Assembly: GCA_944391115.1 (NCBI GenBank)
Contig: CALXSJ010000001.1
Span: 3,169-67,168, forward strand
From: an uncultured Victivallales bacterium
GTDB taxonomy: Bacteria > Verrucomicrobiota > Lentisphaeria > Victivallales > UBA1829
Length of the DNA stretch: 64,000 bases
Direction: 5' to 3'
This document shows, one piece after another, positions 19,468-64,000 of the stretch; positions within the stretch are counted from its first letter, which is position 1, and each line of letters begins with the position of its first letter. The position numbers were made by a program, and so were the translations under genes. The notes under the pieces are model-generated. The model saw nothing but the letters and a program-made list of their open reading frames with translations. It did no database searches and was not told the origin of the DNA.

Positions 19468-19622
19468 TTTATTCAAAAAAATCAGGTTAATCCCGCGATG
19501 CTCCGCATCGCCGGAAATAGCTTCGTGTTCTCCTTCCGGTCCTGCCGCGGTCCAGCTGCGCAAACTGGTCGCCGGAGGTGAAATTCCCGATTCCGCACAT
19601 GCTTGCATCGCGGTAATTTATT
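19468..19622 (+). repeat. Dispersed ~150-nt intergenic element, copy 1 (candidate non-autonomous IS200/IS605-like element)
   Basis: 19475-19514 matches 40803-40842 at 38/40 and 63819-63858 at 30/40 (hand alignment); hairpin GCGATGC-TCC-GCATCGC at 19495-19511; conserved middle block TCCAGCTGCG...GGTCGCCGGAGGTGAAATTCCCGAT. Confidence 0.9.
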
Positions 19623-19720
19623 CCGATACGTTCCGGAGAGGGGAGGAATTCATTTCCCGTCCGCAGTTTGCAACTTTCCGCAGTCGGTGCTATATTGCCG
19701 CTTTGAAACATGGAAGAGAC

Positions 19721-40796: not shown

Positions 40797-40949
40797 TTTA
40801 TTAAAAAAATCAGGTTGATCCCGCGATGCTCTGCATCGCCGGGACAGTTTCGGGATTTCCAGTGAGTCCTGCCGCGCCGCCTGCGCAGACTGGTCACCGG
40901 AGACGAAATCCCCGATCTTTGCGCGTGCTCTGCACCGGGGCGGTTCATT
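40797..40949 (+). repeat. Dispersed ~150-nt intergenic element, copy 2
   Basis: TTTAT|TAAAAAAATCAGGTTGATCCC, hairpin GCGATGC-TCT-GCATCGC (40823-39), right hairpin GTGC-TCT-GCAC (40925-35), ends CGGGGCGGTTCAT. Confidence 0.9.
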
Positions 40950-41042: not shown

Positions 41043-41072
41043 TTGCACAATAAATGGCAAAGTTGTTACGTT
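41043..41072 (+). promoter_or_regulatory. Possible promoter of the T2SS cluster
   Basis: TTGCAC-N18-TACGTT with an extended -10 TGn. Confidence 0.35.
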
Positions 41073-41132
41073 AAGCGAACGTTTGGCTGGATGGGTGCTG
41101 ATGGGTTTTCAATTATTTCAGGAGCAATCTGT

Positions 41133-42026
41133 ATGAAACGGACAACAACAGCGGGGATTTTGCTGCTTGCCTCCGCCTGTCTCATGCTTTCCGCGCAGGG
41201 GCCGGGCAGACAGCGTTTCCGGAACGGGGAGAATGAGCGTCCCCGGCAGGACAATACCGCGGAATGGGCTGAGGTTCAGGCAACGCTCAAAAAGAAGTAT
41301 CCGGAAAAATTCAAGGAAATTGAAAAACTTCAGGCGGGCAATCTCTATGCTGCGCTGGAGAAAATGCGCGAGCTTGCGTCTGAAGCCTCTGTGACGCTTC
41401 CGTCCGCGAGGCGGGGGGCGCGCGGCGACCGGCGTTTCGGCATGGGCGGCGGCAGGAATGACCGGCGCTCCGGCATGGGGATGTTTTCGAATATGAGGAA
41501 TCAGCGCGCATCTGTGGAAGCGGAACTGAAGAAAAAATATCCCGCGGAATACGCGGAAATTGAAAAACAGCGGATTCAGGCGGAAAATAAGCTGGAAGAA
41601 CTGGCGAAAAAGGCAAATGTCGAGCTGCCCGCGACCATGGAATCCGTTCAGCTTAAAATGACGGAACTGAAGAATTCCGGCAAGTTCAAGGCGGAATTCG
41701 ATGAAATCGAAAAACTTCGTGCGGAGGATCCGCGCGCGGCTTACCTGAAGACCTGGGAACTGATGCAGAAGGCCGGGGTGAAAATGCCGGAAATGCGGCG
41801 TTCCGGGTCTGGCGGATTCAGCCATGCCGGAGCCGGCGAGGATGCCGTTCCGCGCACGCCGAGAGTGAATCCTGTGCGCCAGATCATGGAGCTGCGGAAA
41901 AAATATCCCGGTGAAATGCAGAAACTGGATGCCTTGCGCCGGAATGATCCGGAAGCCTACCGGAAAGGCGTTGTGGAGCTTCTGAAAAAATCCGAAGCCG
42001 AACGCGGCTCCGGATCGAAACCGTAA
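41133..42026 (+). CDS. Secreted/periplasmic helical repeat protein at the head of the T2SS cluster
   Basis: RBS GGAG, signal peptide, four related repeats (LKKKYPEKFKEIEKL, LKKKYPAEYAEIEKQ, KFKAEFDEIEKLRAEDP, LRKKYPGEMQKLDALRRNDP). Confidence 0.75.
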   Translation: MKRTTTAGILLLASACLMLSAQGPGRQRFRNGENERPRQDNTAEWAEVQATLKKKYPEKFKEIEKLQAGNLYAALEKMRELASEASVTLPSARRGARGDRRFGMGGGRNDRRSGMGMFSNMRNQRASVEAELKKKYPAEYAEIEKQRIQAENKLEELAKKANVELPATMESVQLKMTELKNSGKFKAEFDEIEKLRAEDPRAAYLKTWELMQKAGVKMPEMRRSGSGGFSHAGAGEDAVPRTPRVNPVRQIMELRKKYPGEMQKLDALRRNDPEAYRKGVVELLKKSEAERGSGSKP

Positions 42027-42045
42027 CGCTGCAGGGAAGCCTTTC

Positions 42046-43272
42046 ATGAAATTTTCCACAATGAAAGAGTTCGCCGTCCTGCTTTTCGCTCCGGGCAGTG
42101 TCCGCTGCTGCTCGTTCCGGCGGGACGCAAAAGGGGTCCGCCTGAAGGCTTTCGCCCATTGCACCCATGATGAAACCGATCCGGCGAAGGCGTGGAAACA
42201 GGTGCTGCGCGAAACCTCGTACAGCCGTGTCTGTCCGCTGATTCTGTCCGGTGCGCTCAAGGGGGGGACGTTCTTCCGCTGCGCCGGGGTCCGGCTTGCC
42301 CCGAAGGCGATGCGCGGCGCGCTGGAATTTGAACTTCCGCAGAGACTGCTCCAGGATACGGCGAATTTTGAACTGGAATTTGTCACGCGTCCTGAGGCGG
42401 CCGAAGGCGAGACGATTCCCGTCAACGTCTATGCGTTTCCCGCCACGGACAAGGAACGTCTGGCCGCGATGCTGACCCAGAGCATCGGAAAGGCGGATTA
42501 TTTTGTCTATCCGCTTCTGGCGCTCCGGGAATCCGACGGGCCCGTTTATCTGCCCGGCATTGAAAGCGATTTCTATTTTTCCGAAGGCGGATGGCATCCG
42601 GTTGCGGAACTTCCGCCGGACTGGCTTTCCTTCTGGGAGAAGGAGATGCGCGGCAGTTTTCTGCTTCCGGAAGAACCGGAATTCAAGCTTTCCGAATGGC
42701 TCGGGTGTCTTCTCTGCGCGCGTCTTGCCGCCGCCGCGGACGTGAAGCATACGTTCGCCGGGCTCAATGTGCTGCCCCGGCAGCTGCGGCCGAGCCGTTT
42801 GCGCAACCAGCTGCGCCTGACCGCGCTGCTGCTGGTTCTGCTGGCCGTGAACTTCGCATGGGGACTGGCCGGCACCCTTTCCGGCAATCACAGGGAGTAT
42901 TCCCGGCTGACTGCCGCCCGGAACCGTCTCCGCACGGAGGTTATGACATCGCAGCGGAAGCTCAAGACGGCGGAAAAGGAGCTGCGCGAGCTTACGCGCG
43001 TCATCAACCAGTCGCCCGGGGAGCGCGATGTGATAGGAAAGCTGGCGCGCTTTTCCGAGGTCCTGCCCAACAATGTCATGGTGACCAATCTGCGCTGGAC
43101 CGACAGCAGTGTCGACCTGACGCTGCGCAGCGAGGCGGAGAGCCTGAACGTTCCGGAGATGATCCGCCCCCTGAAATTCTGGAAGATTGAGCAGATCCAG
43201 CAGCGGCGGAGGAACAACGACACGACGAACACGATCATGCTGAAACTCGTTTCCTCGGAGGAGCGAAAATGA
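42046..43272 (+). CDS. GspL/PilN-like inner-membrane assembly protein
   Basis: Long cytoplasmic N-region, TM (LTALLLVLLAVNFAW), coiled coil, PilN-like C-domain (LPNNVMVTNLRW...LTLRS); position in the T2SS operon. Confidence 0.7.
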   Translation: MKFSTMKEFAVLLFAPGSVRCCSFRRDAKGVRLKAFAHCTHDETDPAKAWKQVLRETSYSRVCPLILSGALKGGTFFRCAGVRLAPKAMRGALEFELPQRLLQDTANFELEFVTRPEAAEGETIPVNVYAFPATDKERLAAMLTQSIGKADYFVYPLLALRESDGPVYLPGIESDFYFSEGGWHPVAELPPDWLSFWEKEMRGSFLLPEEPEFKLSEWLGCLLCARLAAAADVKHTFAGLNVLPRQLRPSRLRNQLRLTALLLVLLAVNFAWGLAGTLSGNHREYSRLTAARNRLRTEVMTSQRKLKTAEKELRELTRVINQSPGERDVIGKLARFSEVLPNNVMVTNLRWTDSSVDLTLRSEAESLNVPEMIRPLKFWKIEQIQQRRRNNDTTNTIMLKLVSSEERK

Positions 43273-43952
43273 ATGATAAGATCAAGGCGTTTCTGAAAAC
43301 GGGAAAGGGCAAGCTTGCGGTTGCCTGTGGCGCGCTCCTTCTCAGCTGGATTTTCCTTCTGACCCAGCTGGGCGGAAGCTTTTCCTCCTGGTTTCCGAAC
43401 GAGGCGCGAAAGGAAGCGCTGCGCAAGGAGATCAAAAAACTGGAAGCCGAACAGGCGGAACAGCAGAAAAAGCTCCGGGAAATGGACGAGGTTCAGAGGA
43501 AATACCGCGGCATGATCGAGAACAGCTGGCAGTATGAACGCGACGGTGATCCGGAACTGCTGCTCCGCCGGGCGGTGGAGATTACGGCAAAGGAAACGGA
43601 AATCAGCCTCAACAACCTCGGTTCCGTTCGTACATCGCGCATCAATGACGATTTTTATTTCGCGGAACTGGACGTTTCTTTCAGCGCGCCGTTTGAAAAT
43701 CTGATGCATTTCATTGCGAAACTGCAGGCGAACAAGCCGGCGCTTCCCTGGCGGCGCATCACGGCGAATCTGTCGATGCGTCCGCCGCATCAGCAGAATA
43801 CCCGCGTCGTGTCGAACACCGCGACAACCGCCGCCACCCAGACTACGCTCATGTTCAACGGGACGATCCGCGTGATCGCCTTTGACGGCGAACTGCCGCC
43901 CGAGGGAAAGACGCTTGCGCGCATTCCGCAGCGTCGGGGAGGAAGAAAATGA
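43269..43952 (+). CDS. GspM/PilO-like protein
   Basis: N-terminal TM, coiled coil, ferredoxin-like C-domain (ELDVSFSAPFENLMHFIAKL); ATGA overlap. Confidence 0.7.
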   Translation: MNDKIKAFLKTGKGKLAVACGALLLSWIFLLTQLGGSFSSWFPNEARKEALRKEIKKLEAEQAEQQKKLREMDEVQRKYRGMIENSWQYERDGDPELLLRRAVEITAKETEISLNNLGSVRTSRINDDFYFAELDVSFSAPFENLMHFIAKLQANKPALPWRRITANLSMRPPHQQNTRVVSNTATTAATQTTLMFNGTIRVIAFDGELPPEGKTLARIPQRRGGRK

Positions 43953-44851
43953 AAACAGCTTTGATCCTGTTCAATGTCTTTCTTGCCGCAATGCTTCTCT
44001 GGGGGGTTGCCTCCCATTTCAAGTCTGCGGATAAAACCGTTTACACCGTCAAGAAACATTCCTCGGTCCGTCCGGTGAAGACTCCCGCAAAGTCGGTTTT
44101 GAAAGTATCCGAGACACGCAAAAAAGAGATGACGCCGGACGAGCAGCTTGCAAAGATCATCGAAACCAATGTCTTCAATGCCGACCGCTGCCCCAATGCG
44201 AGCACGCCCGGCAGAAATACCCGTGTCGAACTTTCTCTGGTCGGAACATTTAAAATCGGGGACTGCGTGGGCGCCATTATCAAGCAGAAGGGATCCGGCG
44301 CTCCCGCGCGGCGGAATTTCCCGTTTCCCCAGGGCGGTCCGCTTCCGCCGGGAATCATGCCTCCAGGACGGCAGATGGGAATCTCGCGAAATGACAGAAC
44401 GGAAAATGTCAACACCACCAACACGCGCGGTGCGGCGCGCGGCGTCCGGGGACAGATGAAGGCGATCTTTTCCAATATCACCGTGGCGGCCGCAGGCAAT
44501 CAGGTTTCCTACAAGCAGTATGTCCGGCTCGGAGAGACGCTCAGCAACGGGTATACGCTGGCCGAAGTCAACCGCGACAGCGTGCTTCTGACCCGCGGCA
44601 GTGACAAACTTGAACTCGAACTGCTTGACGCTTCAAAGAATGCTCCGCAGACGGTGCGGCGGACGAACCGGCGCGTGAACACCGGCACCCAGATGCTCCG
44701 GACTCTCCAGAACATGCAGCGCATGCAGATGTTCCAGAACAGACAGATGATAAACATCATGCGCCAGAACATGAACCGGCAGCAGGCGCAGCCGCAGCAG
44801 AGCGCCACCGGCAACATGCGGACGAACCGTGCACGCACCGGACGACGATAG
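43949..44851 (+). CDS. GspC-like protein (HR domain, no PDZ, Q/M/R-rich tail)
   Basis: N-terminal TM, NVFNADR, LSLVGT...GAII, VRLGETLSNGYTLAEVNRDSVLL. Confidence 0.65.
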   Translation: MKTALILFNVFLAAMLLWGVASHFKSADKTVYTVKKHSSVRPVKTPAKSVLKVSETRKKEMTPDEQLAKIIETNVFNADRCPNASTPGRNTRVELSLVGTFKIGDCVGAIIKQKGSGAPARRNFPFPQGGPLPPGIMPPGRQMGISRNDRTENVNTTNTRGAARGVRGQMKAIFSNITVAAAGNQVSYKQYVRLGETLSNGYTLAEVNRDSVLLTRGSDKLELELLDASKNAPQTVRRTNRRVNTGTQMLRTLQNMQRMQMFQNRQMINIMRQNMNRQQAQPQQSATGNMRTNRARTGRR

Positions 44852-44886
44852 AAAGATGCAGTAAAATAACATAGGATGCCCCAGAA

Positions 44887-47280
44887 ATGATTGATGTTGT
44901 GCAAAACCGAATGAAGCTCCGGATTTTCCGGATCGCAGCGCTGCTGTTCGGCGTGCTGCTTCTGCAATCCTGTTCCCATCTTCAGAAAGATCTGGACGAG
45001 ATCACGCAGGACGCCCCGGAAAAGAAGGAGGAGCCGGGAAAAGCCGACCGTTTCGCTTTCCTGAAAACCGAGACGAGGGAAATCTCCAAGGTGCGCGGCG
45101 CGACCGAGAGCATCAACGAGGAGCTGGTTCAGACCAATGCGGAACGGGAGCTGCCTTCGAATTTGAAAAGCAAAACCGAAAAGATTCCCGTGACCGCGCT
45201 TGCGCCGAAGCCGGAGACGCCGAAGACGCCGCTGCACTTCTATGACGATTTCGTAATCCTGAACGGCGACGAGGAGATCACCGTGAATCTGGTGTTCAAC
45301 AGCGCCCCGCTGCTGGACGTGATTCCCTCCTTTGCGGACGCGCTCGGATTCAACTTCCTGGCCGACAGCGATCTCAAGGGGGTCGTTACGCTGAACATCG
45401 ACCAGAAAATGACCAGGAAAGAGCTCTGGGACACCTTTGACAAGATGCTGAATCTCTCGGGAGCCGGCGTCACGGTCGAGGGCACCCTCCTGCGGATCAT
45501 GGCGCTGCCGAAGGTCGCGAGACAGTCCGATTCCCGCCTTGCCGTCGACGGAAGCGGCGAACTCTTTTACTATCCGCTCAAGAACACCACAGCCAAGGAA
45601 GTCGTCAACCAGATCAAGCCGTTCATCGGGAAGGATGCGGTCTGTGTCGAGCTGACGCGTCCGAACGCGGTCATGATTGCCGACGACCGCGCGAACATGC
45701 CGAAGCTCAAGCAGCTGCTCGACATCATCGACATGAGCGGAAAAAGCGCATGGAAGCGCAAAATCCTCCTCTGCTCGAACATTCTTCCGAGCAAACTGAC
45801 CAATGAGCTCAAAACCATTCTTCCGGTTCTCGGATTCAACGTCCAGCAGATCACGGACAAGACCGAGACGCCCGGTTCCGTCCAGATCAACGGACTCGAC
45901 CGCCTTCACATTCTGGTTGTCTCCGCCGCGACCGAGGAGGCGATTCAGGAGATTCAGCAGTGGGTGGATCTCCTTGACAGCTCGAACTCGCTGGATCAGG
46001 AGCGTGTGTTCGTCTACAAGGTCCGCCACAACAAGGCGTCCCAGCTGGCGCAGGCGCTTTCGATCATCTACGACATTCAGGGATCGAGCCTGACGATTGA
46101 CACCACCACCGGCAATACGAAAATGGAAACCGTCAATTCCACCCAGACGAACCGCAACCGGAACACCAACACCAGGACGCCCGCCGGACAGATCGACATC
46201 AACAGCACGGAAAACACGCTGACCGACCGGAATTCCAATGTGTTCAACACCCCGGTCCGGGTGTTCGCCGACGGCGTGCTGAACCGTCTCGTGGTTCGGA
46301 CGACGCCGCGCACCTACGCCTCGATCAAGGCGCTGCTCAACCGCCTGGACGTCGTGCCTGCGCAGGTGCTTCTGCAGGTGCTCATCGTCGAGGTCTCTCT
46401 GACGGAATCCACCCAGTTCGGCATTGAGCTTTCCGGCGCCTACAACGGAAGCAAGACCAACTCGCTGATCGGCACCAATTACACGGATCTCACCACGCCG
46501 ACCACCTCGACGATCAAGGACGAGAATACGGGGGAAATCACCAGAACGACGAACCGCCAGACCGGATTCAGCTATTTCCTTACCGACCCGGACAATCCCA
46601 GCAACAAGTTCGCCTATATCCGCGCGCTCGCCGGAAACGGAAACACGAAGATCATCTCCAGTCCGCAGCTGCTGGTTTCCAGTCATACCGAGGCGAAGAT
46701 CAACGTCGGCACCGAAGTGTCCGTCATCACCGGATCGATCACAAACACCTCCTCCTCCGGGAGCATGTCCAACACCTATGACTGGGAAACCACCGGCGTG
46801 ACGCTTACCGTGACGCCGCAGATCACCAGCAACGACCTGATTTCCCTGAAGGTCGAGCAGGAACTTTCCAGCGTCGATTACACGAATTCGACCGCGGAGA
46901 ATCCGAACCCGAACAAGAACAACCGCAGCATCACCACGAACATGACGATCGCCAACGGGAAAACGATGATTCTCGGCGGACTGATCCAGGAGCAGAAGAC
47001 CGATAAGCTCGATTCCGTGCCGATCATCAATCAGATTCCCATTCTGCGGCGCCTGATCGGTTCGACCGACGCATCCGTGGACCGCACGGAGATTCTCGTG
47101 CTCGTGACCGGCTATATTGTCAACGAACGCAACAAGGTAGAGGAGCTGATCGAGCGTTACAACGACGCTCTGAAGGCGCTGAACGACTTCGACGACAATC
47201 TCTCCGGCAAGAACGGCGTGTTCCTCTCCAAACCGCGCATCATGACAACGAAGGAGTTCTGGTCCAATGACCTCTTCTGA
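44887..47280 (+). CDS. gspD: Type II secretion system secretin
   Basis: Lipobox LLQSC, N0/N domains, QVLLQVLIVEV, KIISSPQLLV, TGVTLTVTPQI, GKTMILGGLI, PIINQIPILRRL, EILVLVT. Confidence 0.95.
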   Translation: MIDVVQNRMKLRIFRIAALLFGVLLLQSCSHLQKDLDEITQDAPEKKEEPGKADRFAFLKTETREISKVRGATESINEELVQTNAERELPSNLKSKTEKIPVTALAPKPETPKTPLHFYDDFVILNGDEEITVNLVFNSAPLLDVIPSFADALGFNFLADSDLKGVVTLNIDQKMTRKELWDTFDKMLNLSGAGVTVEGTLLRIMALPKVARQSDSRLAVDGSGELFYYPLKNTTAKEVVNQIKPFIGKDAVCVELTRPNAVMIADDRANMPKLKQLLDIIDMSGKSAWKRKILLCSNILPSKLTNELKTILPVLGFNVQQITDKTETPGSVQINGLDRLHILVVSAATEEAIQEIQQWVDLLDSSNSLDQERVFVYKVRHNKASQLAQALSIIYDIQGSSLTIDTTTGNTKMETVNSTQTNRNRNTNTRTPAGQIDINSTENTLTDRNSNVFNTPVRVFADGVLNRLVVRTTPRTYASIKALLNRLDVVPAQVLLQVLIVEVSLTESTQFGIELSGAYNGSKTNSLIGTNYTDLTTPTTSTIKDENTGEITRTTNRQTGFSYFLTDPDNPSNKFAYIRALAGNGNTKIISSPQLLVSSHTEAKINVGTEVSVITGSITNTSSSGSMSNTYDWETTGVTLTVTPQITSNDLISLKVEQELSSVDYTNSTAENPNPNKNNRSITTNMTIANGKTMILGGLIQEQKTDKLDSVPIINQIPILRRLIGSTDASVDRTEILVLVTGYIVNERNKVEELIERYNDALKALNDFDDNLSGKNGVFLSKPRIMTTKEFWSNDLF

Positions 47281-48856
47281 AGCGAAGAGCATTTCCCCGC
47301 GCGAAAAACTCAAGGAGCTTTTCGCCGCGCGCTTTCCCGATTCCCCCGGGCCCTCCCGCGAAGGGGACCGCGCGCTTGTGCAGTCCTCCGCCGTCACGGA
47401 GCCGGAGCTGATTGCCCTGTATTCGGAGGCATACGGGGTTCCGGTGCTGCCCGAGGATGAGATCCGCCAGCCGGAACCCTTCCCGAATGCGCCGCTGGAA
47501 TTCTTCAATGCGAACGTCTGCCTTCCTTATGAGTGGGAGGAGGATTCGATCACCTTTCTCGTCGTGGATCCCTATGCGCTGGATCAGCTGGCGTTTCTGG
47601 TTCAGAAGACCTGGAAGCTGAAGGCGGAGTTCCGTTTTGTCCGCCGGACGTTTCTCGAACGTCTGCTCAGCAAGGCGCAGAGCATGGAGGAGGACGACGA
47701 GGAGACGGCGGTCGACGTCGATGACGAAAACACGCTCCGCACGATGGCGGGCGAGGCGCGGATCGTCCGGCTTGTGAACGACATCTTCACGCAGGCGATC
47801 GAGCTTGGCGCCAGCGATATTCACGTTGAGCCGGACGAGGATCATGTCGCGGTCCGCTGCCGCGTGGACGGCGTGCTCACCGAAATCATCAGCTGCCCGC
47901 TGAACCAGTTTCCCGCGATTGCTTCGCGCATCAAGCTGCTCGGCGGGCTCAACATTGCCGAGAGCCGTCTGCCGCAGGACGGGCGCACCAACGTCCAGCT
48001 CGGACGCACCGAACTGGACATGCGCATCAGCACGATCCCGATTCTGACGGGGGAGAGCATTGTCCTCCGCCTTCTGAATCAGGACGCGATCACCTTCGAT
48101 CTTCAGACGCTCGGGATGTCGCCGGAGCATCTTGCGCAGTTCCGGCGTCTCATCAGCATTCCGCACGGCATGATTCTCGTCGTCGGTCCGACCGGAAGCG
48201 GCAAGACCACGACGCTGTACAGCGTAATCAGCCAGCTGAACGACAGCCGCAAGAAAATCATCACAGTCGAGGATCCCGTGGAATACAAGATGCGCGGGCT
48301 CTGCCAGATGCAGGTCAACGCCAAGATCGGCGTGACCTTCGCCAACGGACTGCGGAGCATCGTCCGTCAGGACCCGGACATCATTCTCGTCGGCGAGATC
48401 CGCGACCGCGAAACGGCGGACATCGCGATCAACGCCGCGCTCACAGGACATCTGGTTCTGAGCACGCTGCATACGAACGATGCGGTCGGCGCGGTGACGC
48501 GCCTCATCGATATGGGCGTGGAAAACTTTCTGGTTTCGTCCGCGCTTTACGGCGTGCTTTCGCAGCGGCTTGTCCGGAAAATCTGCACCGTCTGCCATGG
48601 AAAAGGAACGGATGAACACGGGGCGAAATGCCGCCGCTGCAACGGCAGCGGATTCAAGGGCCGCTCCGGAATCTTTGAACTGCTGTTCCTGGATGATGAA
48701 CTGCGCACGGCGGTAAACCGCAACGCGTCTAGTTCGGAACTTCAGGAAATTGCGGTCCGGCACGGCATGGTGACGCTGCAGCAGGACGGTGCGTCCAAGG
48801 TGGCCGCGGGCATTACCACGCAGGAGGAGCTCAACCGCTCCACCGCCGAACTGTAA
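47267..48856 (+). CDS. gspE: Type II secretion system ATPase
   Basis: ASDIHVEP, RLPQDGR, Walker A GPTGSGKTTT, TVEDPVEY, RQDPDIILVGEIRD, CTVC/CRRC. Confidence 0.97.
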   Translation: MTSSEAKSISPREKLKELFAARFPDSPGPSREGDRALVQSSAVTEPELIALYSEAYGVPVLPEDEIRQPEPFPNAPLEFFNANVCLPYEWEEDSITFLVVDPYALDQLAFLVQKTWKLKAEFRFVRRTFLERLLSKAQSMEEDDEETAVDVDDENTLRTMAGEARIVRLVNDIFTQAIELGASDIHVEPDEDHVAVRCRVDGVLTEIISCPLNQFPAIASRIKLLGGLNIAESRLPQDGRTNVQLGRTELDMRISTIPILTGESIVLRLLNQDAITFDLQTLGMSPEHLAQFRRLISIPHGMILVVGPTGSGKTTTLYSVISQLNDSRKKIITVEDPVEYKMRGLCQMQVNAKIGVTFANGLRSIVRQDPDIILVGEIRDRETADIAINAALTGHLVLSTLHTNDAVGAVTRLIDMGVENFLVSSALYGVLSQRLVRKICTVCHGKGTDEHGAKCRRCNGSGFKGRSGIFELLFLDDELRTAVNRNASSSELQEIAVRHGMVTLQQDGASKVAAGITTQEELNRSTAEL

Positions 48857-48871
48857 CGCGGAGGATTCCGG

Positions 48872-50089
48872 ATGGGGCTTTACAAATATCTTGCCGCCGC
48901 CAGAGGCGAACCGCCGCATGAGATGCTGATCGAAGCGGACAATGAGAAGGAGGCGCTGAACAAACTGCGCAGCCGTCAGGTTACTCCGGTGCGTTTTTAC
49001 GGGGAAGTCTCCGTCGGGGGGAAAGGGAAACTGCTGTTCCGCCGTTCCAAAATCGACACCTATGATTTCACGCGTCAGCTTGCCCCGCTTCTGGATTCCT
49101 TCATTCCGCTGGAAAAAGCTCTTGCGATCATTGCCGAAAGCGCCGTCGAGCCGGAACAGCGCGATTTTGTCAACTCTCTCCGGCAGGGGCTTCACGAAGG
49201 GAAAAAATTTTCCGAGCTGGTGCGTTCCCACGGGTCGCTGTTTCCGGGATATTACGCGAATCTGATCGAGAGCGGCGAGGAGACCGGCTGTCTTCCCGAG
49301 GTGGTCGGACAGCTCTACAAGTTCATGGGGGAGAGCAAGGAGCTCAAGGACTTCATCATTTCGAGCTCGATCTATCCTCTTGCGATTCTTTCGATCACGC
49401 TGATCGTGACGGTGCTGCTGTTCACTGTTTTCGTGCCCCGCTTTGCAAAGATTTTTCAGGACATGGGACGGGAAATGCCTCCCTCGATGAACTTTCTCCT
49501 GGGAGTCAGCGCCTTTGCCTCCTGGGCATGGTGGGTGATTCCGTGTGTCGCGGCAGGCGCCTGGACCGGGCTCAAGAAATTTTTCGGAGAGGAAGCGTTC
49601 CGCTATAATTACAGCCGGTTCCTGCTTTCGCTGCCGCTGTTCGGGCGGATCATCGTGGATCTGGAGATGTGCAAGTACATCCGCACGCTTTCGATTCTGA
49701 TTGCAAATCATGTGGAGATCATCCGGACCGTTCGGATTTCCGGAAGAATCCTTTCCAACCCTGTGGTGGCCAAGGCGTTCGGCGACATTTCGCGCAAGCT
49801 CAAGGGCGGGGCGAAGCTTTCCGCCGCGCTTGCGGGGAACGCGTTCGTGCCAGCCGGAATGGTGCCGATGCTGCGGGTCGGCGAGGAGTCCGGAACCGTC
49901 GGCGAGATGCTTTCGCGTATCGCGAACCATCTGGAAAACGACACGCGCCTGAAGATCAAACGTCTGCTGAGCCTTTTCGAGCCGGCGGTGATTGTGTTTC
50001 TGGCTCTGGTGGTTCTGATTGTCGTGGTATCGATTTTTGTGGCTATGATGGAAATCAACTCAATCAGTCAAGGAGGACCCAAGATATGA
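48872..50089 (+). CDS. gspF: Type II secretion system inner membrane platform protein
   Basis: FTRQLAPLL, SGEETG, SSIYP, VGEESG, LFEP; two T2SSF repeats. Confidence 0.95.
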   Translation: MGLYKYLAAARGEPPHEMLIEADNEKEALNKLRSRQVTPVRFYGEVSVGGKGKLLFRRSKIDTYDFTRQLAPLLDSFIPLEKALAIIAESAVEPEQRDFVNSLRQGLHEGKKFSELVRSHGSLFPGYYANLIESGEETGCLPEVVGQLYKFMGESKELKDFIISSSIYPLAILSITLIVTVLLFTVFVPRFAKIFQDMGREMPPSMNFLLGVSAFASWAWWVIPCVAAGAWTGLKKFFGEEAFRYNYSRFLLSLPLFGRIIVDLEMCKYIRTLSILIANHVEIIRTVRISGRILSNPVVAKAFGDISRKLKGGAKLSAALAGNAFVPAGMVPMLRVGEESGTVGEMLSRIANHLENDTRLKIKRLLSLFEPAVIVFLALVVLIVVVSIFVAMMEINSISQGGPKI

Positions 50090-50508
50090 AAAGAAAGAAA
50101 TGGAAAAGAACGGACTTCACCCTGATCGAAGTCGTCGTCGTGATCATTATTCTGGTCACGCTGGCGTCCATTGCGACGCCGCTCTATCTGAACTACGTCA
50201 AGAAGGCGAACGTCGGCGCAGCCAAGACGCAGATCAAACTCCTGGAAGAGGCGCTGACCGGTTTCCGTCTGGACGTCGGAAGCTATCCGGATTCGACCGT
50301 CGGACTCCGCGCGCTGGTCGAGAATGTCGATCAGAACGCCAAATGGAACGGTCCTTATCTCCAGCCCTCCGTCCCGAAGGACCCCTGGGGCAATGATTAC
50401 ATTTACGTGTTTCCCGGCGAGCACCGCGAATTTGACATCATGAGTTACGGCGCGGACGGACAGCCCGGCGGCGAAGGCGAGAATGCCGACATTACGAACT
50501 GGGAATAA
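50086..50508 (+). CDS. gspG: Major pseudopilin
   Basis: KRTD|FTLIEVVVVIIIL; AKTQI, FRLDVGSYP, WNGPYL, PKDPWG, SYGADGQPGGEGENADI; RBS AAGGAGG; ATGA overlap with gspF. Confidence 0.96.
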   Translation: MKRKKWKRTDFTLIEVVVVIIILVTLASIATPLYLNYVKKANVGAAKTQIKLLEEALTGFRLDVGSYPDSTVGLRALVENVDQNAKWNGPYLQPSVPKDPWGNDYIYVFPGEHREFDIMSYGADGQPGGEGENADITNWE

Positions 50509-50521
50509 ACGCGTTCCGGCT

Positions 50522-50598
50522 TTTCCCGCGGAACTGTCTGTTGCCAGGAGTCCCGCGGGAGGTTTTCATGATCTCTTCTGAATTCTGTCCGCGGGAAA
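50522..50598 (+). promoter_or_regulatory. Symmetric stem-loop between gspG and gspH
   Basis: TTTCCCGCGGA (50522-32) and TCCGCGGGAAA (50588-98) are perfect inverted repeats around the palindrome TCCCGCGGGA (50551-60). Confidence 0.6.
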
Positions 50599-50602
50599 CG
50601 AA

Positions 50603-51142
50603 ATGAAAAGACAGAGACGGTCTCCTTTGCATTTCACGCTTCTGGAGCTTGTCGTCGCCATCGCGATCATTGCGCTGACGACGGCGCTGGCCGTTTCCGC
50701 CTTCCGGGGCGAATCCCCCGCGCGGCAGATGGAAAGCGCAGGGCTCCAGTTTGCGGCGTTCTGTGCGAAAGTCCGCTTTCAGGCCCTGGAAAACGGCGCG
50801 GACCGCATGGTTGTGTTCTATCCCGAAACCCGGACGTTTAAAATGGCGGTTCCGGAAGAGTTTCAGGCGAAGGAAGAGGAGGCGAAGGAGGAAGAGGAGA
50901 AGAAACTGCGCCTTGCGGCAATCGAATGGACGCTGCCGGAAAATTTCGAGCTTGGAACCGAGTTTGCGGACAAGGAGCGGGAAATGGAACAGGAGTATTT
51001 TGAACTGTTCCGCTTTTTTTCCGACGGCGGAGCCTCCGGAAAACTCAAATTCGAGTTGCGTTATCAGATGCTCCGGAAGGTCTTCGACATCTCTCCTCTG
51101 ACGGGACTGCTGACGCAGAATGAGGGAGACGAAGAAACATGA
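50603..51142 (+). CDS. gspH: Minor pseudopilin H-like
   Basis: PLH|FTLLELVVAIAII; position after gspG. Confidence 0.8.
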   Translation: MKRQRRSPLHFTLLELVVAIAIIALTTALAVSAFRGESPARQMESAGLQFAAFCAKVRFQALENGADRMVVFYPETRTFKMAVPEEFQAKEEEAKEEEEKKLRLAAIEWTLPENFELGTEFADKEREMEQEYFELFRFFSDGGASGKLKFELRYQMLRKVFDISPLTGLLTQNEGDEET

Positions 51143-51561
51143 ATCGGAGATCCCGGCCGTTTTTCACCTTGATCGAAGTTGTTGTCGCGCTCGGAATTCT
51201 GGGCCTGAGCATCACTGGACTGCTTTCCCTTCTGATTGCCTCGCAGAAGCGGATCGCGACCGGTTATGAAAAGTGGGAGCATATGCATATGCTTGCCCAG
51301 GCGGCGGAGTATTTCATGCTCATGGGCGAGGACCCCGGCGGCATTCCCGAGGAATTCTTCCCCTACAAGGGATACCGGATCACGGTCGCTTACGAGGATG
51401 TCTCCGACGAACAGGTGCCGGACGATTACAGCAATCTCCTCGGACAGCTGCCTTTGAAATGCATGGTGGTGACGCTGGAACGGGAAGGCGACGGCAAGCA
51501 GCTGGATCAGATCAGAATCGACAGGATCAGTTATGAAACGGCAATCGGAAACGAGGAATAG
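51139..51561 (+). CDS. gspI: Minor pseudopilin I-like
   Basis: RPF|FTLIEVVVALGILGL; ATGA overlap. Confidence 0.8.
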   Translation: MNRRSRPFFTLIEVVVALGILGLSITGLLSLLIASQKRIATGYEKWEHMHMLAQAAEYFMLMGEDPGGIPEEFFPYKGYRITVAYEDVSDEQVPDDYSNLLGQLPLKCMVVTLEREGDGKQLDQIRIDRISYETAIGNEE

Positions 51562-52240
51562 GACAAAAGGATGGTTCACGCTGGTGGAAATCATCGTCGC
51601 CATGGCGATCATGATCTTCGTCGCGCTGATTATCGCCTCGGCGTCCATGACGTTTTACAACGCGTGGCGGCGTTCCGTCAGGATCAGCGACCTGCTGAAA
51701 ACCTATCAGACCATTGACCGCATCATGGACAACTGTGTCCGCAACATGATCCCGTTCACCTGGCGCGACGAGGATCTCAATCAGGAGCGGGTCGTATTCA
51801 AGGGCGAACCCGACAGCATCCATTTCACCGCCTTGCGCCGCGCATACCGGAACGACAAGGGGGCGCTGATCTTCCTCCGCATCAAGGTGGAAAATGAACA
51901 GCTTGTTGCCGAATATTCCCAGTATCCGCGCCTGCAGTGGAACGAGGACGACTCCGAACAGAACTCCTATACCCGCGAGGTGCTCGCCGACCGGGTCCGT
52001 TCGATCACCTTCCGCTATGCGACAGAGGAAAACGACGAGCTGGTCTGGAACGACACCTGGGAAGAGGATCTGAACCTCAACGTCTCCCGCACCAATCCCC
52101 GTCCCGCGATCCCGAACAGCTCCCGCACGTTCCTGATTCCGATCGCCGTCCAGATGACGGTCGAATGGACCGACGGCAGAAAGGAAATCTGGCTCCGCCG
52201 GACTGCCGGGAATTCCAAAAACACCCAGCTGCTGCTTTGA
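51533..52240 (+). CDS. gspJ: Minor pseudopilin J-like
   Basis: KGW|FTLVEIIVAMAIM; IRFRYA and PIAVQMTVEW-type C-terminal motifs. Confidence 0.8.
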   Translation: MKRQSETRNRTKGWFTLVEIIVAMAIMIFVALIIASASMTFYNAWRRSVRISDLLKTYQTIDRIMDNCVRNMIPFTWRDEDLNQERVVFKGEPDSIHFTALRRAYRNDKGALIFLRIKVENEQLVAEYSQYPRLQWNEDDSEQNSYTREVLADRVRSITFRYATEENDELVWNDTWEEDLNLNVSRTNPRPAIPNSSRTFLIPIAVQMTVEWTDGRKEIWLRRTAGNSKNTQLLL

Positions 52241-52248
52241 GGAAGACC

Positions 52249-53244
52249 ATGAGACCCAAGAGATTCCGGAAAAAGAGAGAAGAGAAGGGCTCCGCCCTGA
52301 TTGCGGCGCTCTGTCTGATTTTCACGGCCGGCATGCTGACCGCGTCCGTGCTGATCCTTTCCCGGATTTCCACTTACGACATTGCCGCGCATATTGATCT
52401 TCAGCGCTCTTCCTACCTCAACGAGGGCGTCATGAACCGCGTCCAGTGGCTGCTTGCCGCGGAACAGAACCTTTATCCGGACCGTGCGCTGGGAGATATC
52501 GATTATACGGAATACGACCATGACCGCTATATGGCCGACGGCGTGACTCACGAGATGGATTACTACGGGACCAAAGTGTATTTTTCGATCACGGACGCCA
52601 GGTCCGGGCTCGACCTCAGCCGGAGCGCATTCCGCTCCACCCTGCAGCGTCTCGGCACGCCGATCGACACGGAAACCGAGTTTATCGACCAGTTGAGTTC
52701 GATTCGCGACAAGATCAGTGATTATTACGACACCAATGATGAAGTCGCGCTGGACGGCATGGAGGCCGACGAATACGAGGCGGAAAACATGGCGCCCCTC
52801 CCGCGCAACTCCTCGACAAAGGTGCTCCGGGAGGAGTTTTTCTACATCCCCGGCCTGATCGACCTGTTTCCGCCGGACCGTTTCGGCCGTCTGAGCATCA
52901 TCCGTCTGCTTCGCGCTCCGACGGGCTCTCCGACGTTCTTTACCGCCACGCCGCTGCTGCTGAAGGTTTACTGCAATTTGGAGGACGAGGAGATCGAGGA
53001 GGTGCTTGCCGCGCGGGAGGTCTGGTTCAGGGAACGCACCACGCTGCGCGATCAGCTCGATCCGATGCTGTATGCCGCGCTCGGCACTCTCTCCTGGCGG
53101 GAAAGCGGCACTTATACGATTCTGATCGGACAGAAGGAGAAGCCGGAACGCCCCACGCGCCGGCTTGCCGTCTCCTTCGAGCGGTTCGACGTCACGGGCG
53201 CTTCCGACAACAATGTAAAGCTGATCGAGTGGATGCAGTACTGA
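52249..53244 (+). CDS. gspK: Minor pseudopilin K-like
   Basis: EKG|SALIAALCLIF (no Glu5, as in GspK); ITDARSGLDL; last gene of the cluster. Confidence 0.8.
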   Translation: MRPKRFRKKREEKGSALIAALCLIFTAGMLTASVLILSRISTYDIAAHIDLQRSSYLNEGVMNRVQWLLAAEQNLYPDRALGDIDYTEYDHDRYMADGVTHEMDYYGTKVYFSITDARSGLDLSRSAFRSTLQRLGTPIDTETEFIDQLSSIRDKISDYYDTNDEVALDGMEADEYEAENMAPLPRNSSTKVLREEFFYIPGLIDLFPPDRFGRLSIIRLLRAPTGSPTFFTATPLLLKVYCNLEDEEIEEVLAAREVWFRERTTLRDQLDPMLYAALGTLSWRESGTYTILIGQKEKPERPTRRLAVSFERFDVTGASDNNVKLIEWMQY

Positions 53245-60295: not shown

Positions 60296-60797
60296 AATTC
60301 CTTATTGTTACTTGATCGGATCATATCATTTTCAATCTTTGTTTTTGAACCTGCGCCATCAAGCCCGACAGGCAAATCACTCTTTGTAGCCTGAATGATT
60401 TTTACGGTTCCGGAAAGTCCGCTCTGGTTCGGAAAAATGCTGCTTGCTTCCCTTGTTGATCTTTTCTGCCAATATTTTGCGATTTTCTCATACTGTTTCT
60501 GTGCAGTCTTCATGCTGGCGTTGGCATCAATACAGAAAAAGTCAAACGTGAGAACAGAATTAAAAAAATGGGCAGGCTGAAACAGTATCTTCCAATGGAG
60601 TCTGGCGCAGAGAGGGATATGGCGGCCATCTCGGCGTCAAACCGATTGTTCTGGCGAACCCCCGATCCGGACACCCGGAAACGGATACGGCGGCGAAGAT
60701 GAGAGTTCGCCTCCGGCGACCGGCATTTTATCACTGGAGCGTGAAAAGGGACAAGGGTTCTTGAACCCGCGGAAAATGCTTCCGCAAATTTCCATTT

Positions 60798-63750: not shown

Positions 63751-63779
63751 AGTATAACATACTCCTTGCCAAAAATCAA
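63751..63779 (-). promoter_or_regulatory. Sigma70 promoter of the flavodoxin gene
   Basis: Minus strand TTGATT-N17-TATACT with an extended -10 TGn. Confidence 0.7.
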
Positions 63780-63802
63780 ATGAGTTGCCCCGGTGCAGGG
63801 CA
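63780..63802 (-). repeat. Isolated inverted copy of the element's right end
   Basis: Minus strand TGCCCTGCACCGGGGCAACTCAT vs copy-2 end TGCTCTGCACCGGGGCGGTTCAT (19/23). Confidence 0.7.
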
Positions 63803-63812
63803 AACGGGGTGG

Positions 63813-63969
63813 TTCATTAAAAAAATTGGGTTAATTCCGTGATGCCCTGCATTGCAAAAATAGGGTGTTTCGCGCTTTCCTTTCAGTCCAGTTTTGGTCC
63901 AGCTGCGTAAGCTGGGCGCCGGAAGCGAAATCCCCGATATCTCATGCATCCTGCGTCGGGGCTGTTCAT
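63813..63969 (+). repeat. Dispersed ~150-nt intergenic element, copy 3 (more diverged)
   Basis: TTCAT|TAAAAAAATTGGGTTAATTCC, hairpin GTGATGC-CCT-GCATTGC (63839-55), middle TCCAGCTGCGTAAGCTGGGCGCCGGAAGCGAAATCCCCGAT, ends CGGGGCTGTTCAT. Confidence 0.85.
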
Positions 63970-64000
63970 GTGAAAGGGGGGTTCTGTTCTTTCCAACACC

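Follow-up and report, generated by a model that had tools for sequence, protein, structure and literature searches.

A gene-less intergenic repeat of gut Victivallales with the architecture of IS200/IS605-type elements

Introduction

Three similar sequences of about 150 nt lie between the genes of a 64,000-nt stretch of DNA (hereafter the window) from an uncultured gut bacterium of the Victivallales/Lentisphaeria. The window is an ordinary chromosomal region (ENA ERZ28614196 scaffold_16, with a contig of NCBI GCA_902472675.1 covering the same region). It has genes for methionyl-tRNA synthetase, lipoyl synthase, beta-ketoacyl synthase, a type II secretion operon, P-II, an ammonium transporter and DUF1559 proteins. 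What these repeats are, and how they came to occupy several places, is the question that the locus raises. An earlier note, made from the sequence alone, took them for a non-autonomous family of the IS200/IS605 type, mobilised in trans by a TnpA- or RAYT-type enzyme encoded elsewhere.

The mechanistic model of the IS200/IS605 family is IS608 of Helicobacter pylori, an element of 1.8 kb that carries tnpA and tnpB. IS608 inserts 3' of a short motif without duplicating it, its motifs being TTAC and TCAA. Its left cleavage site lies about 19 nt 5' of the left hairpin and its right one about 10 nt 3' of the right hairpin, and elements of the IS608 type keep a DNA guide just beside the left hairpin. 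MITEs such as Correia/NEMIS and RUP are bounded by terminal inverted repeats and, as a rule, by target duplications. REPs are palindromes of 20-40 nt, single or paired, with a 5' tetranucleotide of the GTAG/GTGG type, and RAYTs are Y1 enzymes whose substrates are palindromic repeats. We argue here that the Victivallales repeat is a gene-less, non-autonomous IS200/IS605-type element, a PATE, with a Y1 TnpA as its presumed partner, and we put the probability of this reading at roughly 60%.

Three copies of the repeat in the window

Rereading of the sequence and an nhmmer search with a three-copy profile confirmed three copies on the same strand, at 19468-19622, 40797-40949 and 63813-63969. Each was retrieved with E ~1e-46, the next best match in the window having E=0.02, and their pairwise identity is 70-78%. 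All three are intergenic, as originally described, and lie on the + strand between genes called with a codon-usage model. The earlier note had also read TTTAT, TTTAT and TTCAT, each followed by an A7 tract, at the left ends, and its readings of these ends and of the three left hairpins proved exact. In the right hairpins the loops consist of pyrimidines; the terminal pentanucleotides of copies 1 to 3 are TTTAT, TTCAT and TTCAT. Refined element boundaries were taken from a strain with a fresh insertion (L113, described below), those of copy 1 being set by analogy with it, and a 5-nt target motif precedes each copy. The features are as follows.

19468..19472, + strand: target motif (TAM-like) TTTAT of copy 1, 5 nt past the stop codon of a zf-HC2 anti-sigma gene
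19473..19621, + strand: copy 1, 149 nt; it begins directly after the TAM and finishes with the final T of TTTAT
19487..19491, + strand: internal TTAAT of copy 1, which lies 3 nt before the left hairpin and is a candidate DNA guide of the left end for the TAM
19495..19511, + strand: left subterminal hairpin of copy 1, GCGATGC-TCC-GCATCGC (96% of cells paired, 31 sequences)
19565..19591, + strand: conserved core of copy 1, CTGGTCGCCGGAGGTGAAATTCCCGAT, the best-conserved stretch of the family; the core end, CCGAT plus 2 nt, abuts the right hairpin
19593..19613, + strand: right subterminal hairpin of copy 1, CCGCAC-ATGC-TT-GCAT-CGCGG, with compensatory changes at three pairs
19617..19621, + strand: element-encoded end motif (TEM-like) TTTAT of copy 1
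40797..40801, + strand: target motif TTTAT of copy 2, just 3' of a terminator-like hairpin of the upstream gene
40802..40948, + strand: copy 2, 147 nt
40823-40839, + strand: left hairpin of copy 2, GCGATGC-TCT-GCATCGC
40890-40916, + strand: core of copy 2
40925-40935, + strand: right hairpin of copy 2, GTGC-TCT-GCAC, enclosed by CCCCG (40910-14) and CGGGG (40936-40)
40944-40948, + strand: end motif TTCAT of copy 2; immediately after 40948, other strains have an additional copy
63779..63812, + strand: right-end-like relic CCCCGGTGCAGGGCAAACGGGGTGG, a weak nhmmer match
63813-63817, + strand: TTCAT, which together with the relic at 63779..63812 supplies the target motif of copy 3
63818..63969, + strand: copy 3, 152 nt
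63839-63855, + strand: left hairpin of copy 3, GTGATGC-CCT-GCATTGC
63912-63938, + strand: core of copy 3
63965-63969, + strand: end motif TTCAT of copy 3

The neighbours of copy 3 are flavodoxin and GFO/IDH/MocA oxidoreductase genes, and the copy is antisense to both. Several proteins without a Pfam match precede a type II secretion-like operon at 41043-53244 (secretin GspD, ATPase, GspF, pseudopilins), and copy 2 lies just upstream of the first gene. A sigma-70-like promoter, TTGCAA-N17-TATATT (19667-19696), is found between copy 1 and a GT2/PMT_2 glycosyltransferase gene. In sister species (L133/L134), a near-identical promoter follows the orthologous anti-sigma gene and drives a rhamnosidase instead. 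On the - strand at 60704-60741, just downstream of a gene of 575 aa, the sequence CCGGTCGCCGGAGGCGAA contains an 18-nt match to the family core. Its profile score is weak (E=0.014), it is conserved in other strains, and it may be a relic or a chance match.

Anatomy of the repeat

Alignment of the copies together with their flanks showed sharp ends, similarity starting just after TTNAT (middle base T in 15 cases, C in 5 and G in 3) and stopping at an element-encoded TTYAT. The motif TT[T/C/G]AT, mostly TTTAT, precedes 22 of about 25 copies, and nearly all copies end in TT[C/T]AT, mostly as GTTCAT and often with TT after it. A conserved target motif and sharp ends, on which the first interpretation depended, were therefore both found. 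In 10 of 21 copies the left pentanucleotide is identical to the right one, against about 8 expected by chance, and so there is no signal of target duplication. The right motif tracks the hairpin subtype, which indicates that it belongs to the element.

The left part of the element consists of a tract of six to eight A residues, a TTNAT-like pentamer, 2 nt and the left hairpin, GCGATGC-YYY-GCATCGC. The middle comprises a variable spacer, a subfamily-specific hairpin and a CCAGC...GCTGG hairpin, which is followed by the almost invariant core TCGCCGGAGGCGAAATCCCCGAT. Two nucleotides after the core comes the right hairpin, and then 8 nt that end in TTYAT. From end to hairpin the element measures 22 nt at its left side and 8 nt at its right. 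Over 31 sequences, 96% of cells keep their pairing in the left hairpin and 81% in the right one, where compensatory changes are seen at three pairs (GC/CG/UG, AU/GC and UA/CG); the subfamily-specific helix H2 is 64% paired. RNAalifold run on the same number of sequences returned no consensus fold beyond the left hairpin.

On the + strand the loops of both hairpins are pyrimidine-rich, with purines at 7 of 69 positions on the left and 5 of 59 on the right. This shared strand bias makes the hairpins direct repeats rather than the arms of a terminal inverted repeat; it is the polarity of the loops that decides this, not the stem sequence. The earlier claim that long terminal inverted repeats are lacking therefore holds, with the correction that the similarity of the hairpins makes the ends align weakly in inverted orientation too.

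Position 3 of the target motif and position 3 of the internal TTNAT form Watson-Crick pairs in 14 of 22 copies (T-A in 10, G-C in 2, C-G in 2; permutation p=0.04), a position that was chosen after the data had been seen. At the right end, CCGAT occurs with TTCAT or TTTAT and CCAAT with TTTAT, the CCAAT state coming from a single lineage. We also tried to read the folding strand from an excess of G.T over A.C mismatches; this looked promising in the three copies and was not significant once orthologues had been collapsed (36:26, p=0.25). Terminator hairpins were considered as the target and rejected, since a clear hairpin is present in only about one third of left flanks and right flanks are equally structured. 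No conserved open reading frame was found in the element: copies differ by 1-nt indels, and the ATG of the only long antisense frame, which lies in GTTCAT, is not conserved. The same two observations exclude a small ORF or a type I toxin.

Two length variants were noted. In L010:6491-6659 (- strand), an 11-nt duplication (AAAATCACTAT twice) lies between the A-tract and the left hairpin, so that this spacer tolerates a change in length. In L052, a 9-nt duplication (CCCGATCTC) is found in the core.

Distribution and genomic setting

A core-pattern scan of one genome per species identified 15 further copies, all in three Lentisphaeria/Victivallales MAGs (10, 4 and 2 copies), and a scan of metagenomes gave about 10 more, mainly from one sample containing the same species. 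The family total is about 25 independent copies, confined to gut Victivallales/Lentisphaeria genomes and metagenomes, as counted by strict-pattern scans of incomplete MAGs and metagenomes. No true copies were found in the viral contigs, plasmids and phages scanned. Nothing in the window reached the gathering score of an Rfam family, be it a riboswitch, a ribozyme or an omegaRNA-type motif such as IS605-orfB or HEARO, and searches of copy 2 and L053 at E<=10 gave only noise. The family appears to be undescribed and, so far, restricted to a narrow clade of gut Victivallales.

The expectation of many copies genome-wide was only roughly borne out: incomplete MAGs each yielded 2-10 copies, a single metagenome of low coverage yielded at least 10, and the approximately 67 kb made up of the window and the sequence just beyond it yielded 4. 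The fourth of these, L100:6802-6919, lies about 3 kb past position 64000 on the same strand as copies 1-3 and is truncated after the core (profile positions 2-119). It stands at the edge of a strain-variable region adjoining a tRNA-Met gene. In strain L099 this region encodes a type I restriction-modification system, a Fic protein and a D5-type primase; in the strain of the window it is occupied by a glycosyltransferase cluster. Several metagenomic contigs (L022, L023, L026, L004 and L039) end inside the element, which implies that the family causes assembly breaks and that copy counts from MAGs are underestimates.

All of the approximately 25 independent copies are intergenic, and the four kinds of intergenic arrangement all occur. 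They adjoin unrelated housekeeping genes (groEL, aconitase, ackA, pta, Fe-ADH, maf and a PLP enzyme). In 13 of 18 cases the copy points the same way as the upstream gene, the downstream gene is often convergent, and orientation relative to the downstream gene is mixed. At one locus, two copies 3.5 kb apart lie in opposite orientation. Elements of the IS200/IS605 type are expected to show an orientation bias towards replication, with the active strand on the lagging-strand template. Relative to local GC skew, about 14 are positive and 7 negative across loci, a weak bias; all 4 copies in or near the window are on the G-rich strand.

A 27-mer, TGGTCGCCGGAGGCGAAATCCCCGATA, was observed in contigs of another gut metagenome (L053:2465-2498 and L054:9011-9044, - strand). 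Before it stands a hairpin whose arms carry compensating changes (CCAAGG...CCTTGG, in place of CCAGC...GCTGG), after it TTTTCAT, and it is located about 70 nt upstream of a gene whose product starts MIKNIILVGVGGQGILLAARII and resembles a 2-oxoacid:ferredoxin oxidoreductase. Rfam gave no match for this locus, which may be a distant relative of the repeat family or of the family's source.

Candidate enzymes were sought around the copies. Pfam searches found no transposase among the genes of the 64-kb window or those adjoining the approximately 25 copies, and none in about 10 kb beyond the window, which includes the strain-variable island at the tRNA-Met gene. No TnpB was found in the 64-kb window, in the approximately 10 kb beyond it, or beside any copy. 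A tblastn search with an IS608-like TnpA also found nothing, a weak check because its query was an approximate sequence.

Copy number differs between strains of one species

Strains of the same species, whose flanks are 98-99% identical, differ in copy number at two of the three sites in the window. At site 2, five contigs, including the window, have a single copy, and L113 carries a second, non-identical copy of 152 nt exactly between the GTTCAT of copy 2 and the flank: GGTTCAT[TTCAAAAAAATTTAGG...GCGGTAATTTAT]TTCCCTTC. The unfilled and filled sites read GGTTCAT^TTCCC and GGTTCAT[152 nt ...TTTAT]TTCCC, with 3 nt ambiguous. At site 1, L123 and L127 have a full extra copy 5' of copy 1, and L126/L018 have the same extra copy minus 22 nt internally. 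The two sites are unlinked, all four combinations of single and double being present, with one reservation: the strain that combines a lone copy at site 1 with the new site-2 copy has the latter in a 3'-truncated form.

Both new copies have the diagnostic CCCCAAT in place of CCCCGAT, and their right ends are of one type. Between the new copy at site 1 and resident copy 1 there are 13 substitutions, confined to the centre, and the new copy at site 2 departs from copy 2 in the centre and at the right end. The shared CCCCAAT and these differences from the residents indicate that the new copies were imported from a young subfamily and are not local duplications. Empty sites in related strains, a check proposed with the first interpretation, are available for comparison: some strains carry extra copies at sites 1 and 2, and the orthologous spacer of sister species has none.

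Both insertions sit on the boundary of a resident copy despite the presence of 57 intergenic TT[TCG]AT sites in the window, which would happen by chance in about 1% of cases. This suggests that the target is longer than 5 bases, that insertions elsewhere are selected against, or that homology helps. The alleles with an extra copy at site 1 (L123, L127 and L126/L018) read GACGAAG-GGC-TTTAT against GACGAAG-TTTAT in the single-copy allele, and the extra GGC is explained by neither peel-and-paste, duplication nor homologous deletion. The 5' arm of the subfamily-specific hairpin has two six-base states, CAGGAC, which pairs with GTCCTG, and CTCTCC, which is unpaired. The state switches between the orthologous copies L011:4299-4443 and L052:1990-2143, and also between the two new copies, and such block switching points to gene conversion between copies at different places.

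A mobile or recombining repeat that moves by other than Y1 means, for example through a site-specific recombinase acting on TTNAT or by homology-assisted copying, with its likeness to IS605 convergent, would suit several of these observations. The abutment of both polymorphic insertions on resident copies, the GGC that fits no peel-and-paste product, the block switching as active gene conversion and the lack of a Y1 gene in the window, about 10 kb beyond it or beside the copies all lean towards it. It is countered by the new copies themselves, which are not duplicates of their neighbours (13 substitutions at one site, a different right-end type at the other). Moreover, most copies are solitary, in unrelated flanks, with the same sharp ends and motifs, and the architecture matches PATEs and IS605 point by point. 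We consider movement by such means unlikely.

Products of decay were also observed. The new copy of site 2 is present with three different deletions in L117:244-366, L118:242-364 and L120:238-360. Each deletion begins at the 5' foot of the right hairpin (following CCCCAAT or CCCCAATAC) and extends 3, 10 or 19 nt into the flank, microhomology being limited to 1-2 nt. They could be deletions provoked by the hairpin, failed excisions or the scars of a nuclease. Elsewhere, decay takes forms that are typical of PATEs: L016 has a copy without the left hairpin, and L002:3584-3653 is a core-less, terminal-only copy of about 65 nt whose two hairpins have collapsed into one. In L039, head-to-tail pairs have one pentanucleotide in common, and right-end relics give a full copy its target motif in three cases (copy 3, L002 and L003).

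Conservation across species and possible host functions

Two sister lineages, in which the anti-sigma protein is 75-77% identical and upstream synteny is kept, have a spacer of 86 nt, without the element, downstream of the anti-sigma gene. At a locus common to two species, the element is 89.7% identical and the flanks 92-96%, so that individual copies are without detectable purifying selection. The corresponding test on same-species orthologues has no power, their flanks being 98-99% identical. The possibility that the copies are fixed orthologous regulatory sites, which had been raised against the original reading, is contradicted by strain polymorphism, absence from the sister species and the lack of any extra conservation.

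These data bear on whether the repeat is a multi-copy structured RNA gene or a 3'-UTR module, such as a terminator or mRNA stabiliser, that has a host function and was spread by duplication. Such a role would fit the shared orientation with the upstream gene in 13 of 18 cases, the right hairpin and T-rich tail of copy 2, which score as terminator-like, the conservation of core and hairpins across the family, and the single occurrence of a core-like motif upstream of a gene in an unrelated contig. On the other side, neither Rfam nor RNAalifold offers a match or a consensus beyond the left hairpin, copies point either with or against the downstream gene, and copy 3 opposes the genes on both its sides. 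The orthologous copy changes no more slowly than the flanking sequence; strains vary in whether a copy is there, is truncated or has internal deletions, and sister species lack the element. We therefore regard a host function of this kind as very unlikely. A riboswitch or 5' leader is excluded by the varied gene arrangements, the convergent genes that many copies precede and the antisense position of copy 3; Rfam gave no match, and the gene downstream of copy 1 has its own TTGCAA-N17-TATATT promoter after the element.

Like MITEs and REP/BIME repeats, the Victivallales repeat is small, intergenic, multi-copy and structured, and can give terminator-like hairpins; unlike them, it has no terminal inverted repeats, no target duplication and no solo palindromes. 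A REP/BIME-type repeat served by a domesticated RAYT transposase would be in keeping with the action of RAYTs on palindromic repeats. However, no hairpin was found outside the 150-nt unit in the Victivallales loci L001-L054 and the window, the unit is a fixed composite with asymmetric ends and a non-palindromic core, and its copies number tens, not hundreds. No tetranucleotide of the GTAG/GTGG type was noticed on reading the copies, and a REP origin seems scarcely credible. Of the first interpretation, the non-autonomous IS200/IS605-type family is thus supported by architecture, motifs and mobility, and the RAYT/REP variant is not, no hairpin having been found alone in the loci covered.

A MITE bounded by terminal inverted repeats is excluded by the absence of both such repeats and target-site duplication. 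IS110/bridge-RNA elements, IS91 and integron attC sites were rejected because flanks beyond TTNAT are unconserved, the element itself contains GTTC, and housekeeping genes, not cassette arrays, surround the scattered copies.

Comparison with known elements

The distances from end to hairpin, 22 and 8 nt, compare with about 19 and about 10 nt in IS608. The right end of IS608 is not a target, whereas that of the Victivallales repeat is a valid target motif, which allows tandem arrays.

PATEs derive from IS605-type transposons (PMC3119063), and those of Haloquadratum walsbyi, such as HqIRS46 (Dyall-Smith et al. 2011, PMC3119063), resemble the Victivallales repeat in many respects. Both are too short for a transposase, have neither terminal inverted repeats nor target duplication, and carry two mutually similar palindromes near their ends, with a longer distance from end to palindrome on the 5' than on the 3' side. 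Both have a 5' targeting sequence of 4-5 nt and strain-specific insertions, and both tend to land on other mobile elements. Terminal-only derivatives formed by deletion between the palindromes are also shared, being represented here by L002:3584-3653 (PMC3119063). The two differ in that one comes from a bacterium of the PVC group and the other from a haloarchaeon, and they have no sequence similarity. In addition, the best-conserved part of the Victivallales repeat is a non-palindromic core of about 30 nt by the right palindrome, and no related full-length IS605 element was found for it. Taken together, architecture, motifs, absence of target-site duplication, strain-level insertions and terminal-only derivatives fit the published definition of PATEs.

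The motifs have a parallel in Geobacillus, in which TTTAT (ISGst2) and TTCAT (ISGst5) are experimentally verified target motifs and the end motif of both elements is a slight variant of the target motif (Meers et al. 2023, PMC10055086). The Victivallales repeat has the same target motifs and an end motif near-identical to the target; this comparison concerns motifs and organisation. In Geobacillus stearothermophilus, gene-less PATE-like relatives within the same genome are mobilised in trans by one TnpA (PMC10055086). Covariation between target motif and internal guide, reported for the Geobacillus elements (PMC10055086), is hinted at in the Victivallales repeat. The Geobacillus elements differ in that most carry tnpB or iscB and a proven omegaRNA, whereas the Victivallales repeat is without a nuclease gene.

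Proposed mechanism and role of the conserved core

In the model that we favour, a Y1 (HUH) TnpA encoded elsewhere in the genome would recognise the two subterminal hairpins on one strand and cut after the flanking TTNAT on the left and after the element's own TTYAT on the right. The element would be excised as a single-stranded circle and pasted 3' of another TTNAT, without target duplication. As the right end of the element is itself a valid target motif, tandem arrays follow, and new copies landing directly behind residents would produce head-to-tail arrays. The conserved core beside the right hairpin may serve in recognition of the right end and possibly as a guide-RNA scaffold.

PATEs often encode omegaRNAs (Meers et al., PMC10055086). 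By extension, the stretch of about 65 nt from the left hairpin to the right end, with the CCAGC...GCTGG hairpin and TCGCCGGAGGCGAAATCCCCGAT, could be an omegaRNA-like guide scaffold used in trans by TnpB or IscB, a reading that we consider quite unlikely. The guide would then be read across the right end, the TAM of the nuclease would be TTTAT or TTCAT, and the repeats would be PATEs that home under RNA guidance. Since the end motif TTTAT of the new copy would be such a TAM, the three deletions at the right hairpin would be the scars of self-targeting.

Biological implications

On present evidence, the Victivallales repeat is an ordinary selfish repeat of a known kind. The earlier interpretation was largely right in kind, with its enzyme postulated, as here, from the form of the element. 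If the repeat is a PATE mobilised in trans, it extends the transposase-free derivatives of IS605 to the PVC group, in uncultured gut bacteria of the Victivallales, and gives a population-level view of a PATE-type element that still varies in copy number within one species. The repeats break metagenomic assemblies and mark differences between strains, and they add hairpin or terminator-like modules beside housekeeping genes. Should the core be a guide-RNA scaffold, the family would offer a compact natural case of guide RNAs dispersed without their nuclease.
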